Shown in pieces: positions 23,865 to 28,828 of a stretch of 56,677 nucleotides of DNA; position 1 is the first letter of the stretch, and each line of letters begins with the position of its first letter. The notes under the pieces were generated by a model, which was given only the letters and a program-made list of their open reading frames with translations, ran no database searches and was not told the DNA's origin. A program made the position numbers and the translations under genes. Source of the stretch: Pseudomonadota bacterium (lineage in GTDB: Bacteria; Pseudomonadota; Alphaproteobacteria; RF32; CAG-239); NCBI GenBank assembly GCA_030536665.1, contig JAUNPO010000002.1, forward strand, positions 1-56,677, written 5' to 3'.

Positions 23865-24393
23865 AGTTTTCGACAGATTTGACTTCCGGTATGTAGGTTT
23901 TTATGACTTTTTCGACGCCTTCTTTCAGGGTGCGCAGCGCATAAGGGCAACCGGCGCAGGCGCCGCACATTTCGACATAAACAATGCCGTCAACATATTT
24001 TCTGAATACGATGTCGCCGCCGTCCTGTTTTACAGCCGGGCGAATGCGGGCGTCAAGCAGACCGTGAATTTTTTGAATGATTTCTTCATCAGTCGTTGTT
24101 TCATTGTTGTCAATGACCGCTTCTTCTCCGGTGGCCAGATAATCCATGATTTCCGCCAGAATCAGCGGTTTTAAGTCTTCCCATGAGGCTGTGGCGTCTT
24201 TGGTGACTGACACCATATCCGCAGTGATGAAAACGGATTTTATGCTGCCGAGGTCGAAAATCTGTTCCGCCAGCGGGGATTTGCGGATGGTTTTGGCATC
24301 GGCAAATTCGGCCTGGCTTTTTTTCATCAGCGGTTTGTCCGGGAAAAAATTGATGACGTCGGCATCCGGCGTGTTTTGAGTTTCAATGAGCAT
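23854..24393 (-). CDS. NifU/Nfu-type Fe-S cluster scaffold (Nfu_N plus NifU C-terminal domain)
   Basis: 179 aa. CGACAGCPYALRTLKEGVE CxxC motif, with an N-terminal Nfu_N-like domain (TPDADVINFFPD). Confidence 0.85.
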   Translation of the reverse strand: MLIETQNTPDADVINFFPDKPLMKKSQAEFADAKTIRKSPLAEQIFDLGSIKSVFITADMVSVTKDATASWEDLKPLILAEIMDYLATGEEAVIDNNETTTDEEIIQKIHGLLDARIRPAVKQDGGDIVFRKYVDGIVYVEMCGACAGCPYALRTLKEGVEKVIKTYIPEVKSVENYEE

Positions 24394-24395
24394 TT

Positions 24396-25418
24396 TTAAT
24401 CCTTGTCTTGCGGGAGTTGGTTAGATATTTTGAGCATCAGCAGCCTGGCTTTCAGAATATGACCGTTCAGGTAAGCCAGGTGGTTGGGGGCAGTCAGACT
24501 GTCCGGTTCGCCGTTGCGGACAATCAGGGGTGCAATGTGCGCGGCTTCCTGCAAGGCCGAAAGCATGACGGTCCAGTTTTCGTATTGTCCGGCGGCGACG
24601 ATGATTTCCTTATAATCGCGGCCGATGGCCTGCAATTCCAAAAATGCGGCGTAGGCTTTTCCCCGGTTGAAGTAAAAGACGTTGTCTGCTTTGCCGTCAA
24701 ACCAGCTTGAGCTGAATTCGCGAATCTGCTTTTCAAGGTCGAGGTTGGCGCGTTTCAGATTGCCGCCGGTCAAGGCCAATATGGTTTTTAAATCGCCGGC
24801 GCGGGGCGTGAAAACGATGATTCCGGCCGACAGCGCCTGATTGTATTTGTTCAGCTGACGGATGGCCCGGCGGTATTGTTTGGTTGAAGAGGGCGCAGGG
24901 ACGAGATTGTTTTCAAGAGAGAACAGCCAGACCGTTCCCGGATATTGCAGCATTTCCACGGCGGTATCAAGGCGGTTGGGCTTGTTTTCGCCGGCTGGCA
25001 GCGGCGGCATGACGCGGCTGAGCGCCAGAGCCGTGTTGGCGGCAGTATTTATCATTCCGAGCTGAAAGCTGGGCATATTGTCAAGAAAATATGAAGGGAA
25101 AAAGAACGGCAGGTTGGGGGTCCACAGTTTGTCGTTGACTTCCCTGTTGACAATATATGACGTTGTGGCGATTGTTGCGGATTGTTTTGGGTCGGACAAA
25201 GGGATTTCATAGTCGGTATTGGTATCAATATCGTTGATTATCCAGCCGCCGAGAGGATAATAGAGGCAGATGACGGTAATTGCCGTCACGGTGACGATAT
25301 GCCACCAGGATTTTAAAAAGAAAACCAAGGCGTTGATGGGCTTAATCTTCATCAACGAACTGTTTTTCAGCCATTTTTTTAGTTTTGAAAACAGGGCGGA
25401 CAGCGGCTTGTCAAACAT
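24396..25418 (-). CDS. DUF2333-like membrane-anchored protein
   Basis: One N-terminal TM segment. FLDNMPSFQLG, ADNVFYFNRGKAYA and NHLAYLNGHILKA resemble DUF2333 as I recall it. The ATG at 25418 (AAGGA upstream) is preferred over the TTG at 25439. Confidence 0.55.
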   Translation of the reverse strand: MFDKPLSALFSKLKKWLKNSSLMKIKPINALVFFLKSWWHIVTVTAITVICLYYPLGGWIINDIDTNTDYEIPLSDPKQSATIATTSYIVNREVNDKLWTPNLPFFFPSYFLDNMPSFQLGMINTAANTALALSRVMPPLPAGENKPNRLDTAVEMLQYPGTVWLFSLENNLVPAPSSTKQYRRAIRQLNKYNQALSAGIIVFTPRAGDLKTILALTGGNLKRANLDLEKQIREFSSSWFDGKADNVFYFNRGKAYAAFLELQAIGRDYKEIIVAAGQYENWTVMLSALQEAAHIAPLIVRNGEPDSLTAPNHLAYLNGHILKARLLMLKISNQLPQDKD

Positions 25419-26994
25419 TCTTTTTTCCTTTTTTGGCAAAAACTTTAAGGATTTCGTTATAATCCACGGCTCCTGTTAGTTTAGCCATAATGCCGAAAGT
25501 TGCAACACCCAAAATGCATAATCCGCTTAAAAGGGCGATTTTTTTCATGAAAGCGAGATGCAGCCAGTTGCCGTAACGGGCATTCAGCGCCGTTTCTCCC
25601 AGGTAAATAGCCGCGGCCATAACCAGAGAGGACAGGGTTATCATCAGAAGCCGGCGTTTCAGCGCGGGACTGAACGTCCAGTAACCGCGTTTTTTCAGGC
25701 CATAGACATATTGTCCGTAGGAAACAAAGGCGGCAATGGTGGTCGCCGAAGCCACGCCGACGTGTCCGAAAGGCTTCATCAGCAGCAGGGAGAAGCCGAT
25801 ATTGGCGGCAAAAACGACGATACTGTATTTTACCGGCGTCCGGGTGTCGCCGCGGGCAAAAAAGTTTGGCGTCAAAGCCTTAACCAGCACATAGACGGGG
25901 AGGCCGACCGAATAGGCGATGACGGCGCGTGCGGTCATGGTTGTTTCCAATGCGCCGAATTTGCCGTGTTGAAACAGGATGTTGATTACCGGGACCGCCA
26001 GAACAATCAGGGCAAAAGCCGCGGGAATTGCAAAGAGGGCGCCGTACTCGACGGCATTGTCCTGTACGCGGCGAGCCTCGCTTGAATTTCCGGCCTTTAT
26101 CTGTTTGGACAGTATCGGCAGGAGGGCAACGCTTATGGCGGCGCCGATGACGCCCAGCGGGAGCTGTTGCAGACGGTTGGCATAGTAAAGCCAGGAAATG
26201 GCGCCGGTTCCGACGAGAGAAACGATAATTGTGTCGACCATCATGTTTATCTGGTAAATTCCGGCGCCGAGCACGCCGGGGGCAATGCGCCGGAACAGGG
26301 TTTTTATTTCGGCAGAGCGGCATAACGTCAGGATGTTGAAATGGGCGCGGACGGCGGCGCCGGCTTTCTTTAAAAACCAGCCGAGCCAGATGATTTCAAT
26401 CAGCCCGGCGAGGGTGACGCTGACCGAGAGGTTGTAGGCCGGGGTGTTGATAAACGGGAAATAAACAAAAACCGCGCCGGCCATCATCAGGTTGAGGATT
26501 ACCGGAGCGGCGGCAGGAGCGGCGAAACGGTTCAGGGCATTTAAAATTCCCGACTGGAAGGACACAACGGAAACAAAAAGCAGAAAGGGAAAAGTTATGC
26601 GGGACAGGTCGACCGTCAGGCTGAATTTTTCGGGATCGCTCATGAAGCCCGGCGCCATAAGGGCGACCAGCTGCGGCATGAAGATTTCAACAACAAGGAC
26701 AAAGAAGAGCAGGAAAAAGACCAGCACGGAAATGGCCTTGGAAGCAAAGTCAAAAGCCGAATCTTCTCCCTCCGCAACCATTTTTTGAGAGAGGAGAGGG
26801 ACAAAAGCGCTGGTAAACGCCCCTTCGGCAAACAGGCTGCGGAACAGGTTGGGGAGTTTGAAAGCAACAAAAAAGGCATCGGCAACTGCGCCGGCGCCCA
26901 GAAAACCGGCAAGCAGCATATCTCTGACGAAACCGGTGATTCTGCTGACCAGCGTAAAACCGCCGAATGTGGCTACGGATTTGAACAATGACAT
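25411..26994 (-). CDS. murJ: lipid II flippase MurJ
   Basis: N-terminus SRITGFVRDMLLAGFLGAGAVADAFFVAFKLPNLFRSLFAEGAF, 527 aa, about 14 TM segments. Confidence 0.95.
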   Translation of the reverse strand: MSLFKSVATFGGFTLVSRITGFVRDMLLAGFLGAGAVADAFFVAFKLPNLFRSLFAEGAFTSAFVPLLSQKMVAEGEDSAFDFASKAISVLVFFLLFFVLVVEIFMPQLVALMAPGFMSDPEKFSLTVDLSRITFPFLLFVSVVSFQSGILNALNRFAAPAAAPVILNLMMAGAVFVYFPFINTPAYNLSVSVTLAGLIEIIWLGWFLKKAGAAVRAHFNILTLCRSAEIKTLFRRIAPGVLGAGIYQINMMVDTIIVSLVGTGAISWLYYANRLQQLPLGVIGAAISVALLPILSKQIKAGNSSEARRVQDNAVEYGALFAIPAAFALIVLAVPVINILFQHGKFGALETTMTARAVIAYSVGLPVYVLVKALTPNFFARGDTRTPVKYSIVVFAANIGFSLLLMKPFGHVGVASATTIAAFVSYGQYVYGLKKRGYWTFSPALKRRLLMITLSSLVMAAAIYLGETALNARYGNWLHLAFMKKIALLSGLCILGVATFGIMAKLTGAVDYNEILKVFAKKGKKNV

Positions 26995-27127: not shown

Positions 27128-27156
27128 TTGACAAAGGTAATTTTTGTTGCGATAAT
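27128..27156 (+). promoter_or_regulatory. near-consensus sigma70-type promoter (TTGACA-17 nt-GATAAT)
   Basis: TTGACA at 27128-27133, a 17-nt spacer, GATAAT at 27151-27156, in an AT-rich intergenic region. Confidence 0.6.
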
Positions 27157-27202: not shown

Positions 27203-27562
27203 ATGTCTAATTTAACAAAAGAAAATACCGGCAAGGTATTCAGACGGGGGGAAGCGCGAAAGTTCTTTTCTGCCGGCGGAACGTCAATTTTGGCAACACA
27301 GAATGTAAAGGCAGCACAGGCTCAACGAGAATATATCTCTAATAAAGTTTTGTCGACTAACGGCAAAGGCTGGATTGGTGAGTTGCGTCTTGCTGATGAG
27401 AGCAAGTCTTTAATTACAAACAAGGCTATTTCCAAAAATCAGCATCTGAGCAGCGGCGAAATGTCTTATGTTGCTCAGGAAGATGCAGAGCGTGCAGTTA
27501 AAGCTGCTGATTTTGAAGTTCAGCAGGCTGCTATTTTGGCAAGAACCGGAAAGGAAATGTAA
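27203..27562 (+). CDS. hypothetical protein (119 aa)
   Basis: ATG at 27203 preceded by AGGAGAAG. It has its own promoter and terminator. The TTG start at 27113 in the ORF track lies upstream of the promoter. No motif recognised. Confidence 0.65.
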   Translation: MSNLTKENTGKVFRRGEARKFFSAGGTSILATQNVKAAQAQREYISNKVLSTNGKGWIGELRLADESKSLITNKAISKNQHLSSGEMSYVAQEDAERAVKAADFEVQQAAILARTGKEM

Positions 27563-27611
27563 CCGCCAAAAAACAAAAGTTATTTATTAGGGCATAACTT
27601 CTTGATTTTAT

Positions 27612-27645
27612 AAAACGGGATGTGGAAAAACATTCCGTTTTTTTG
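27612..27645 (+). terminator. intrinsic terminator
   Basis: AACGGGATG (27614-27622) pairs with CATTCCGTT (27631-27639) with one G-U pair, then a T-run. Confidence 0.75.
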
Positions 27646-27686
27646 TTTCTGTTATGCGCAGGGGGAAGTTGACGGCGGATTTTTTA

Positions 27687-27714
27687 TTGAAATTTGAAAA
27701 AGAGGCTGTATACT
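27687..27714 (+). promoter_or_regulatory. sigma70-type promoter (TTGAAA-16 nt-TATACT)
   Basis: TTGAAA at 27687-27692, a 16-nt spacer, TATACT at 27709-27714. Confidence 0.55.
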
Positions 27715-27720
27715 CTGTTT

Positions 27721-27989
27721 CAGACAACGGGATTTCCCATTGTTTAGCGCCATGTGGCGCGGGGGTGTCATAGCCCTTTTGTAACACGGTGTCTGATATA
27801 AACACCGACAACGATGCTCTTGTTGAAAGAAGTCGTTTTATATCCCCGGCCTATGGTCGGGGAGCTTTCAGCGTATGTTCAGAAACTTCTCGGCTTGCCG
27901 TTGCGGTTTTAAAGGCTGAAATATCATTTTTGTTACAAATGATCTATGACCTTCCCGACCACCTAGTGCTGTCACTGGTGGTTTTTTTT
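27721..27989 (+). ncRNA. candidate structured RNA of about 270 nt (sRNA or 5' leader/attenuator of the XRE gene)
   Basis: Bounded by the promoter above and an intrinsic terminator. Contains several hand-foldable stem-loops. No convincing protein-coding frame. No family assignment possible by eye. Confidence 0.4.
27959..27989 (+). terminator. intrinsic terminator 23 nt upstream of the XRE start codon
   Basis: CCACC(T)AGTG (27959-27968), loop CTGT, CACTGGTGG (27973-27981), then T8 (27982-27989). Confidence 0.7.
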
Positions 27990-28012
27990 ATCTTAAATAC
28001 AGAGGAAAGAGC

Positions 28013-28510
28013 ATGAAACAGGAAGGGCAAAAATCTAAAATAACCAAGATGAAAACCGGCAGTTCCCGTGGGCGGACACCTGAGGGCAAGCCGAATCCGA
28101 TAGATGTTTTTGTCGGCAAGAAACTGCGGCAGCGGCGTCTGTCGCTGGGAATAAGCCTGGAACAGCTGGCAGCGCAGATGGGTATGACGTTTCAGCAGCT
28201 GCGGAAATATGAATGCGGCGCCAATCGTATCAGCGCCAGCAGGTTGTGGGATTTGGCCGGGGAATTGGACGTGTCCATTGATTTCTTTTTTGAGGGAATG
28301 GATGCGGAAACCGCCAGCCTGTCGCCGCGGCGTTTTAGCCCATGGTATGAACGGGCGGCGGAATTTGAACGTTTTTTGGAAAATATACACGACCCGATGT
28401 TGAAAAAAGAAACGGGGGAACTGGTGCAGGCATATTATGAAATTAATGATCGCGATGTTGCCTTGTCGCTGCGGGAATTGATCTCGGCAATGGCGCGGGC
28501 GACGGCGTAA
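28013..28510 (+). CDS. XRE-family helix-turn-helix transcriptional regulator
   Basis: PNPIDVFVGKKLRQRRLSLGISLEQLAAQMGMTFQQLRKYECGANRISASRLWDLAGELDVSIDFFF is a Cro/C1-type HTH of the form common in alphaproteobacteria. Shine-Dalgarno GAGGAAAG. Confidence 0.9.
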   Translation: MKQEGQKSKITKMKTGSSRGRTPEGKPNPIDVFVGKKLRQRRLSLGISLEQLAAQMGMTFQQLRKYECGANRISASRLWDLAGELDVSIDFFFEGMDAETASLSPRRFSPWYERAAEFERFLENIHDPMLKKETGELVQAYYEINDRDVALSLRELISAMARATA

Positions 28511-28570: not shown

Positions 28571-28828
28571 TTATCCGTTGACGTGGGCGGCAGTTTTCAT
28601 GGAATAGAAGATAAACAGCCAGATTGCCGTGTATATTGCGCCAAACCATATGTTTAACAAAAAGGTCAGGGCACAGACGCCGAGGATTGTTACGGCGAAG
28701 AAAATTTCCCTGTAGTGTCTGACTAATCGTTCAAAAAGGATAGCCACGGTCAGGACAAAGTTTCTCAAGCTTTTTTTGCAACGGATGACTGATTTCAGCC
28801 ATGCACGTTTTACAACGTTTTTTTTCAT
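28571..28828 (-). CDS. hypothetical small membrane protein (85 aa)
   Basis: ATG ORF with two hydrophobic helices. No Shine-Dalgarno sequence seen. Confidence 0.4.
   Translation of the reverse strand: MKKNVVKRAWLKSVIRCKKSLRNFVLTVAILFERLVRHYREIFFAVTILGVCALTFLLNIWFGAIYTAIWLFIFYSMKTAAHVNG

Follow-up and report, generated by a model that had tools for sequence, protein, structure and literature searches.

A structured RNA between its own promoter and terminator ahead of an XRE regulator gene in an alphaproteobacterium: a candidate attenuator leader

The stretch of DNA analysed here (contig JAUNPO010000002.1 of the alphaproteobacterial assembly GCA_030536665.1, positions 1 to 56,677, that is 56,677 nucleotides (nt); hereafter the window) carries a discrete structured RNA of about 270 nt, which lies between its own promoter and its own terminator, directly upstream of a gene for a 165-amino-acid regulator of the XRE family of helix-turn-helix (HTH) proteins (28013-28510, + strand; Pfam HTH_3, E = 4e-12). 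An RNA of this kind, matched to no RNA family, had been proposed in a first-pass annotation made from the letters of the sequence, and our analysis bears this out. The same annotation had left open whether the RNA is a free-standing small RNA (sRNA) or an attenuation leader. The latter is the best-supported reading, and we hold with moderate confidence that the RNA is a cis-acting, terminator-based attenuator leader of the XRE gene and represents a new family; its terminated product may in addition act as an sRNA.

Promoter, terminator and fold of the RNA

A consensus scan places a sigma-70-type promoter, TTGAAA-16-TATACT, at 27687-27714 of the + strand. It matches 10 of the 12 consensus positions, has a T-rich stretch on its 5' side and gives a predicted transcription start near 27720-27722, and no further promoter was found by such a scan in the interval 27715-28012 of the window. 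The approximately 270 nt between promoter and terminator are devoid of any credible gene. The intrinsic terminator at 27957-27989 (+ strand; 11-pair stem, CUGU loop, U8) ends 23 nt ahead of the XRE start codon at 28013 and stands between this codon and the sole promoter found, an arrangement that is conserved in about nine lineages. The Shine-Dalgarno sequence GAGGAAAG belongs to the XRE gene itself. Promoter and terminator had both been recognized in the first-pass annotation. The promoter region is kept in the seven strain variants that reach that far, the sole change being an A-to-G in the spacer (L177 and L182), and the 35 nt 5' of it have diverged; the terminator is identical in seven of eight strain variants, with one G-to-T in its 3' arm in L085.

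The region 27720-27995 folds to -103.6 kcal/mol, with z = -6.2 relative to dinucleotide-shuffled sequences, none of 200 of which was as stable. The minus strand is nearly as stable when folded. We assign the RNA to the + strand because of the orientation of the promoter, the U tract and some ten G-U pairs in supported helices, which would become A-C mismatches on the minus strand.

In the minimum free energy (MFE) fold the RNA (all elements on the + strand) begins with a hairpin, H1 (27722-27745), which is found in all related RNAs and shows in the related locus L081 one compensatory change of A-U to G-C and one change of A-U to G-U. It is followed by a second hairpin, H1b (GCGCC/GGCGC, 27747-27760), whose stem is invariant and which varies in the loop only. 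Two long-range helices, P1 (27761-27773, GGGGGUGUCAUAG, with 27944-27956) and P2 (27776-27786 with 27930-27940), together amount to 22 bp and enclose a core of four hairpins. Within the core, Ha (CGGUGU/ACACCG, 27787-27807) shows one U-A to U-G change and contains in its loop UGAUAUAAA, an instance of the motif form (C/U)GAUAUAA(G/A), and Hb (27810-27837) carries a compensatory G-C to C-G pair in L081. H3 (27843-27863, CCCCGGCC/GGUCGGGG) is formed by two strands that we call X (27844-27851) and Y; it has three compensatory pairs in comparison with the more distant loci L103 and L170 introduced below. The 3' strand of H3, Y (27855-27864, GGUCGGGGAG), is complementary as well to a downstream segment, Z (27951-27960, CUUCCCGACC), which resembles an anti-Shine-Dalgarno sequence and reaches from the end of P1 into the terminator base; Y and Z are complementary over 10 nt. 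H4 (27866-27920), finally, is a long hairpin with internal loops, in whose outer stem L083 has replaced G-C by A-U and which in comparison with L103 and L170 has four compensatory pairs in the outer and four in the inner stem.

This architecture retains much of what had been read from the sequence before. Three of the hairpins noticed then (27747-27760, 27787-27807 and CCCCGG(CC)/(GG)TCGGGG at 27844-27862) are all present in the MFE fold; H1, P1, P2 and H4 are additions to them. A stem AGAAGT/ACTTCT (27828-27880) did not hold up: AGAAGT pairs locally in Hb instead, and at this site L081 has a G-to-C change that would disrupt the proposed stem but for which a partner change in Hb compensates. 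The hairpin ATCATTT/AAATGAT (27923-27943) may represent a co-transcriptional or alternative fold: in competition with the 3' strand of P2 it does not form in the MFE fold, but its complementarity is kept in all three haplotypes described below and includes an A-U to G-C change in L083.

The strain variants fall into three RNA haplotypes, the window type, the L081 type and the L083 type, each of which folds independently to one common architecture. Conservation sets in at the promoter, extends through the U tract and falls on either side. The roughly 90% identity of the RNA is not exceptional by itself, because the genome identity to L081 is a mosaic of stretches of either 100% or about 90%. 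In the alignment of these variants (A8), in which 98.6% of the cells are paired, 11 pairs are changed on both sides, as compared to a mean of 3.2 in shuffled alignments, none of 500 of which reached 11, and to 0-2 in slid controls. Eight of the 11 lie in P1/P2, where L083 has rewritten both strands, 170-180 nt apart (for instance GUCAUAG/CUAUGAC to UUCACAA/UUGUGAA). This compensatory pattern shows the structure to be under selection.

Relatives ahead of other XRE genes

Relatives were gathered by scanning genomes and metagenomes with an XRE alignment and by adding contigs of individual XRE homologues, and the distribution reported here is to be read as at least what is found among the 600 pattern matches listed. 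In an nhmmer search of 86 loci with the window RNA, the close relatives L081-L086 alone came up. In several host-associated metagenome-assembled genomes (MAGs) and metagenome contigs the XRE gene comes after a promoter, a structured RNA and a terminator: L004 (roe-deer jejunum), L014 and L055 (RUG MAGs), L028, L078, L091, L098 (a human-gut contig), L101, L103, L167 and L170. The RNA always lies on the strand of the XRE gene and directly 5' of it, the upstream neighbour differs among the loci, and a promoter comparable to that of the window is found in every related RNA, 5-8 nt ahead of the first hairpin.

Most alphaproteobacterial XRE orthologues have their own promoter and no such RNA, and the gene ahead of them looks, from its sequence, like lnt, encoding apolipoprotein N-acyltransferase. 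RNA-less XRE loci have in common a palindromic box, TATAAAATATTATA, which sits immediately 5' of a TTGAC -35 element and about 75-150 nt ahead of the XRE start codon (L001:2893-2906, L087:333-346, L088:2417-2430, L110:1472-1485). It is absent from the RNA-bearing loci and is probably an auto-operator of XRE.

The relationship of the window RNA to more distant members was followed with R2, a covariance model of its 3' half (H3, H4, Z and the terminal hairpin), the E-values of which, like those of the model R1 described below, are rough, both models having been quickly calibrated. R2 scores 182 bits on the window, in which it finds no second copy on the + strand. Its top non-self match is L103:2217-2385 (28.8 bits, E = 3.6e-4 in 595 kb) and its second is L170:1258-1421 (E = 2.9e-3 in 221 kb), each of them upstream of an XRE paralogue with about 45% identity to the XRE protein of the window. 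In the R2 alignment with these two, 12 of 38 pairs are changed on both sides (three in H3, four in the outer and four in the inner stem of H4, and one in the terminal hairpin), a count that none of 500 shuffles attained and that compares with at most 2 in slid controls. Covariation in relatives, which had been named as a check on the RNA, is seen both among the haplotypes and at this greater distance. Of all segments, Z (UUCCCGRCCACCU) is conserved best when the window type is compared with L103/L170, and the terminator stem sequence GRCCACC/GGUGGYC is retained as well.

At L170, and likewise at L172 and L103, the XRE paralogue resides in a mobile-element-like locus with a large serine recombinase, DUF2924 and DUF3489. 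L170 carries an RNA of the short form described in the next paragraph on the opposite strand (866-1032) and the window-type RNA on the XRE strand (1258-1421), the two being divergent as in the control region of a phage or an integrative and conjugative element; the opposite-strand copy faces a 61-amino-acid open reading frame (ORF), DUF2924 and the serine recombinase. The last hairpins of these two L170 RNAs lack a U tract.

A short form of the RNA, 150-170 nt in length, is found ahead of XRE genes in several alphaproteobacterial MAGs from rumen and gut. Its layout comprises H1, a P1 that extends from GGUGUU to GCUCCUCC, P2, an H3 of the type CCYCC-loop-GGRGGAG, an H4 with the internal loop GAUAUAAG/CGAAUAAG, and the terminator. 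A single-sequence model seeded on L055 with all of these elements, including the H4 internal loop (R1), matches L014 (1.8e-19), L078b (4e-13), L091a, L167a, the opposite-strand copy of L170 and, weakly, L004 (a and b denote the upstream and the XRE-adjacent copy of a tandem pair). In the alignment made with this model 37 of 53 pairs are changed on both sides as against a shuffle mean of 17.8, an alignment fitted to the structure; L055 and L014 compared by themselves show compensatory pairs in P1 and H4. In P2 and H3 the MAFFT alignment of the short forms falls short of what a joint model requires.

R1 does not match the window or L081, and R2 does not match the short forms. Window type and short form are therefore without a statistical link, neither model having found the other form. 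They do share their position, their architecture and several motifs, namely CGAUAUAAG, which lies in Ha of the window and recurs in the short-form RNAs, GGGGAGCU, and CUYCCC adjoining the terminator. On this basis they are probably, if not provably, related subfamilies. A regular expression for GATATAA...GAATAAG is found in L014, L055 and L078 only. At 25 places in viral contigs that contain CGATATAAG-N-CGAATAAG, R1 matches the bare motif, and we do not count these as family members. Frames of 15-28 codons that stop at the UAA of the GAUAUAAG-type motif occur in many members, among them at 27759-27806 of the window, L055:110-169, L014:1236-1295 and L091:1157-1243. As leader peptides they were rejected: they lack a Shine-Dalgarno sequence and conservation of the peptide, and we judge them to be a by-product of the motif, which itself contains UAA.

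Three loci have a tandem pair of RNAs upstream of one XRE gene (L078:455-614 and 681-838; L091:1148-1314 and 1382-1641; L167:956-1090 and about 1160-1410). Each tandem copy has its own promoter, and two of the upstream copies, L078a and L167a, are degraded to the point that P1 and P2 have no 5' strands left.

Proposed attenuation and its alternatives

A role of the RNA in cis is indicated by its constant place on the XRE strand directly 5' of XRE while the upstream neighbours vary, by the promoter of their own that RNA-less XRE loci have, and by the spacing of RNA and gene. In the window, L081/L083, L014, L055, L078b, L028, L004, L098 and L101, 21-39 nt separate the end of the U tract from the XRE start codon, a gap which accommodates a Shine-Dalgarno sequence but no promoter, and XRE must therefore be transcribed by read-through in these lineages. 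At L091b, L167b, L103 and L170, where the last hairpin lacks a U tract, the RNA accordingly would be the 5' untranslated region of the XRE transcript or simply its upstream neighbour. In the tandem arrays it is the copy that is not adjacent to XRE which looks decayed (L078a, L167a).

How might read-through be regulated? RNAalifold applied to the alignment of the window type with L103 and L170 (A7) paired Y (27855-27864) with Z (27951-27960), a segment that takes in the terminal bases of P1 together with the four lowest pairs of the terminator stem. Intrinsic termination needs a stem that reaches the U tract. Pairing of Y with Z would detach the hairpin from the U tract and would therefore act as an antiterminator. 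Complementarity of Y and Z over 5-10 bp is present in all members read by eye, and the two sequences co-vary (GGAGGAG:CUCCUCC, GGGGAG:CUCCCC, GGAGGGAG:CUCCCUCC and GGUCGGGAUG:CAU(U)CCCGGCC, for example), a covariation that is judged by eye, since register shifts defeated a column-wise count on alignment A6.

We thus envisage the following course of events. Transcription would start at about 27720 from what appears to be a strong promoter of the constitutive type, and the nascent RNA would fold into the 5' hairpin, the P1/P2 rod around Ha, Hb, H3 and H4, and then the strong terminator. By default most transcripts would stop at 27989 to give a stable RNA of about 270 nt, and XRE would be expressed from read-through transcripts only. 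The extent of read-through, we infer, would be set by the alternative pairing of Y and Z within a chain of mutually exclusive partners, X with Y, Y with Z, and Z with the terminator, in which Y is locked by X in H3 and P1 serves as an extra lock on Z. The fold would be switched by a factor acting at the H3/H4 junction, either a protein, possibly XRE itself, or a small ligand. A purely thermodynamic switch was discarded, as the fold with Y:Z enforced is 14-18 kcal/mol worse than the MFE fold. Going beyond the attenuator leader as such, a less probable reading is that the RNA belongs to a new class of regulated attenuators, riboswitches or protein-responsive leaders that possibly sense XRE, which controls a conserved XRE regulator in gut and rumen Alphaproteobacteria and in mobile elements. 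In its switch Y would mimic a Shine-Dalgarno sequence, and both X and Z an anti-Shine-Dalgarno sequence, Z forming the base of the terminator; its terminated product might also act as an sRNA.

Several observations weigh against the attenuator reading or parts of it. The transcription start, the 3' end and the read-through are predictions made from sequence. The tandem copies at L078 and L091/L167, which have promoters and terminators of their own, and the opposite-strand copy at L170 indicate that the RNA can exist as an independent gene, and all loci were collected through XRE, so that copies of the RNA elsewhere are out of view. The length of P1/P2, 22 bp, together with the cost of 14-18 kcal/mol means that a switch to Y:Z needs a factor. 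Moreover, Y:Z enforced in the short forms leaves most of the terminator intact, and since the 5' strand of P1 resembles Y in sequence, the complementarity of Y and Z may partly be a by-product of P1 pairing. Finally, the probable link between window type and short form draws on architecture, motifs and position.

The same independence of the RNA is what speaks for a free-standing gene for a trans-acting sRNA, of which the terminated RNA of about 270 nt would be the functional product. Such an sRNA might pair with Shine-Dalgarno regions of target mRNAs through its C/U-rich segments or might sequester a protein; XRE would then be served by leaky read-through or would be the transcriptional regulator of the RNA. 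A strong promoter and a strong terminator make up a complete unit, stable sRNAs typically have a 5' hairpin and a U-rich 3' tail such as those seen here, motifs of the CUCCUCC type are conserved, and conservation extends exactly from promoter to terminator and drops on both sides; the tandem and divergent copies fit as well. However, the C-rich segments are not exposed in loops but engaged in the pairing of H3 and P1, the upstream copies of the tandem pairs appear degenerate, and members without a U tract would be co-transcribed with the sequence downstream. The terminator-bearing loci never have room for a promoter of XRE's own. We regard a purely trans-acting role, the main rival of the attenuator, as possible but doubtful, while a dual function as leader and sRNA is compatible with both this and the attenuator reading.

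A different mechanism of attenuation, proposed in the first-pass annotation, is that translation of an upstream ORF (uORF) melts the terminator and passes ribosomes to XRE through an ATGA overlap. The 25-codon frame exists in the window as described (27939-28016, + strand, with its TGA at 28014-28016), its start codon occupies one column in the three haplotypes (ATG, GTG and ATG, respectively), and it is open through the terminator. Yet ATG 27939 has no Shine-Dalgarno sequence upstream and is buried in P2, within the stretch 27930-27956 that holds the 3' strands of P2 and P1. The proposed junction is not conserved either: in L081 and L083 the frame ends at a TAG 14 nt before the XRE ATG, and the ATGA overlap turns out to be specific to the window haplotype because of a 1-nt indel after the terminator in these two. 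Substitutions follow the pairing of P1 and P2 and not the peptide, as exemplified by the change of the residues IYD to TCE, for which the opposing strand of P1 compensates. In L103 and L170 another frame is open at this place, most short forms lack such an ORF altogether, and XRE has its own Shine-Dalgarno sequence, so that coupling is not needed. We judge the uORF not to be functional, which equally disposes of a leader-peptide attenuator of the trp type, and consider the coupling mechanism very improbable. Less probable still, to the point of being barely credible, is that the region has no function at the RNA level and consists of DNA operators, a degenerate remnant of a mobile element or a gene for a small protein (frames of 75 and 15 amino acids). 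There are indeed several short ORFs, one frame invariably stops at the UAA within the GAUAUAA motif, and A/T-rich motifs could in principle be bound by proteins as DNA. But single-base indels between the haplotypes break the 75-amino-acid frame, the ten or so G-U pairs fit the + strand only, and nothing else in the window matches the RNA. The compensatory substitutions in helices whose strands are up to 180 nt apart can only be explained by RNA pairing. The attenuator leader thus remains the reading we prefer.

Neighbouring genes, known elements and significance

The XRE protein has close homologues in two clusters, P0001 (99% identical) and P0002 (67% identical), and the corresponding contigs share one gene order: MurJ(-), an ORF of 117 to 119 amino acids, the RNA, XRE, an 85-amino-acid ORF(-), YihA(-), YidC(-) and more genes. 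The upstream ORF of 119 amino acids (27203-27562) has no Pfam match, is present only in close relatives and is preceded by a strong promoter, TTGACA-17-GATAAT with a TG extension (27128-27156). That this preceding gene has its own terminator, as noted before, was confirmed (stem at 27612-27641, followed by a T run); its 3' untranslated region is about 95% identical between strains and holds an extra hairpin, AAGUUAU/AUAACUU. The 85-amino-acid ORF between XRE and yihA (28571-28828, minus strand) has hydrophobic stretches but no Pfam match and is called as a gene in the relatives L082, L086 and L177 too. Nucleotide identity between the window and L081 is 99-100% at 24001-25600, about 88-95% elsewhere and 63-65% in the 3' half of XRE (28301-28500). 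In its C-terminal half the regulator is either hypervariable or exchanged from strain to strain, and the RNA ahead of it is kept.

Searches of the whole window against Rfam 15 (4227 models) at the gathering threshold returned two tRNAs only. The region 27500-28100, for which an Rfam check had been suggested, gave at E <= 10 no family inside 27715-27990 and only weak matches on the upstream terminator, and five related loci gave no match on their RNAs at E <= 1. On the opposite strand the RsaE model reaches only 15.3 bits at 27572-27644, where the gene upstream has its terminator, as against a gathering score of 79. A tmRNA, including the two-piece form of Alphaproteobacteria, was dismissed: ARAGORN reports only tRNA-Arg and tRNA-Trp in the window, and the alpha_tmRNA model of Rfam has no match in the window or in 27500-28100. 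The riboswitch and leader models of Rfam do not match either, nor was any known aptamer matched. With respect to a possible riboswitch, the helices covary and the short forms have conserved internal-loop motifs (GAUAUAAG/CGAAUAAG), the motifs differing between the subtypes. Our literature searches found no description of the RNA. Among the genes most often found beside unexplained structured-RNA candidates in human microbiomes are those of the XRE family, and a catalogue of 3161 unnamed candidates has 100 near HTH-XRE genes (PMC8040213); in the portion of this catalogue by Fremin and Bhatt that we compared, about 194 of the 3161 alignments, the motifs of the RNA are absent. The structured RNA is an undescribed family, outside Rfam 15, within a known kind of element.

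The closest known systems are leaders with a terminator and an antiterminator. Attenuators of the trp type use a 1:2, 2:3, 3:4 logic, and in transcriptional OFF riboswitches P1 competes with the antiterminator. Our RNA resembles such leaders in that it is a promoter-proximal structured RNA with potential pairings that are mutually exclusive and an intrinsic terminator directly before the regulated gene, and in that the 3' strand of its P1 overlaps the expression platform. It differs from trp-type attenuators by the lack of a conserved leader peptide with a Shine-Dalgarno sequence, from riboswitches by a P1/P2 of 22 bp, which is far longer than a ligand-gated P1, and from both in that the regulated gene encodes a transcription factor and not a biosynthetic or transport function.

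Likenesses to other systems are looser. The Listeria RNAs SreA and SreB reportedly are sRNAs that arise by premature termination of riboswitches or leaders, and as an analogy of design only, one unit could likewise give an abundant terminated RNA and a read-through mRNA here. With sRNAs of the alpha-r14/NfeR1 type and with RsaE/RoxS the RNA has in common CUCCUCC-like motifs, its own promoter, a Rho-independent terminator, the occurrence of tandem copies at some loci and, as regards the alpha-r14/NfeR1 type, alphaproteobacterial hosts. In these sRNAs, however, the C-rich motifs are in loops or single strands, whereas here they are paired in H3 and P1, and our RNA is two to three times larger and has a long-range closing helix. 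More speculatively, the RNA may be likened to HK022 put and to EAR, which too are structured RNAs located after a promoter and before a terminator, and the pair of RNAs at L170 flanks a divergent control region of a mobile element. There is, however, no similarity to either in sequence or structure and no match to the EAR model of Rfam, and put consists of two short stem-loops.

If confirmed, our findings would add a large structured RNA family to the almost unstudied, uncultured Alphaproteobacteria of gut and rumen, and would reveal a conserved XRE regulator that is expressed only through an RNA gate. As a worked example with a testable switch, composed of X:Y, Y:Z and Z with the terminator, the RNA would aid the reading of the XRE-adjacent RNA candidates that have been catalogued (PMC8040213). 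Its presence beside XRE paralogues in recombinase-bearing elements, moreover, may mean that it acts in mobile-element control regions.

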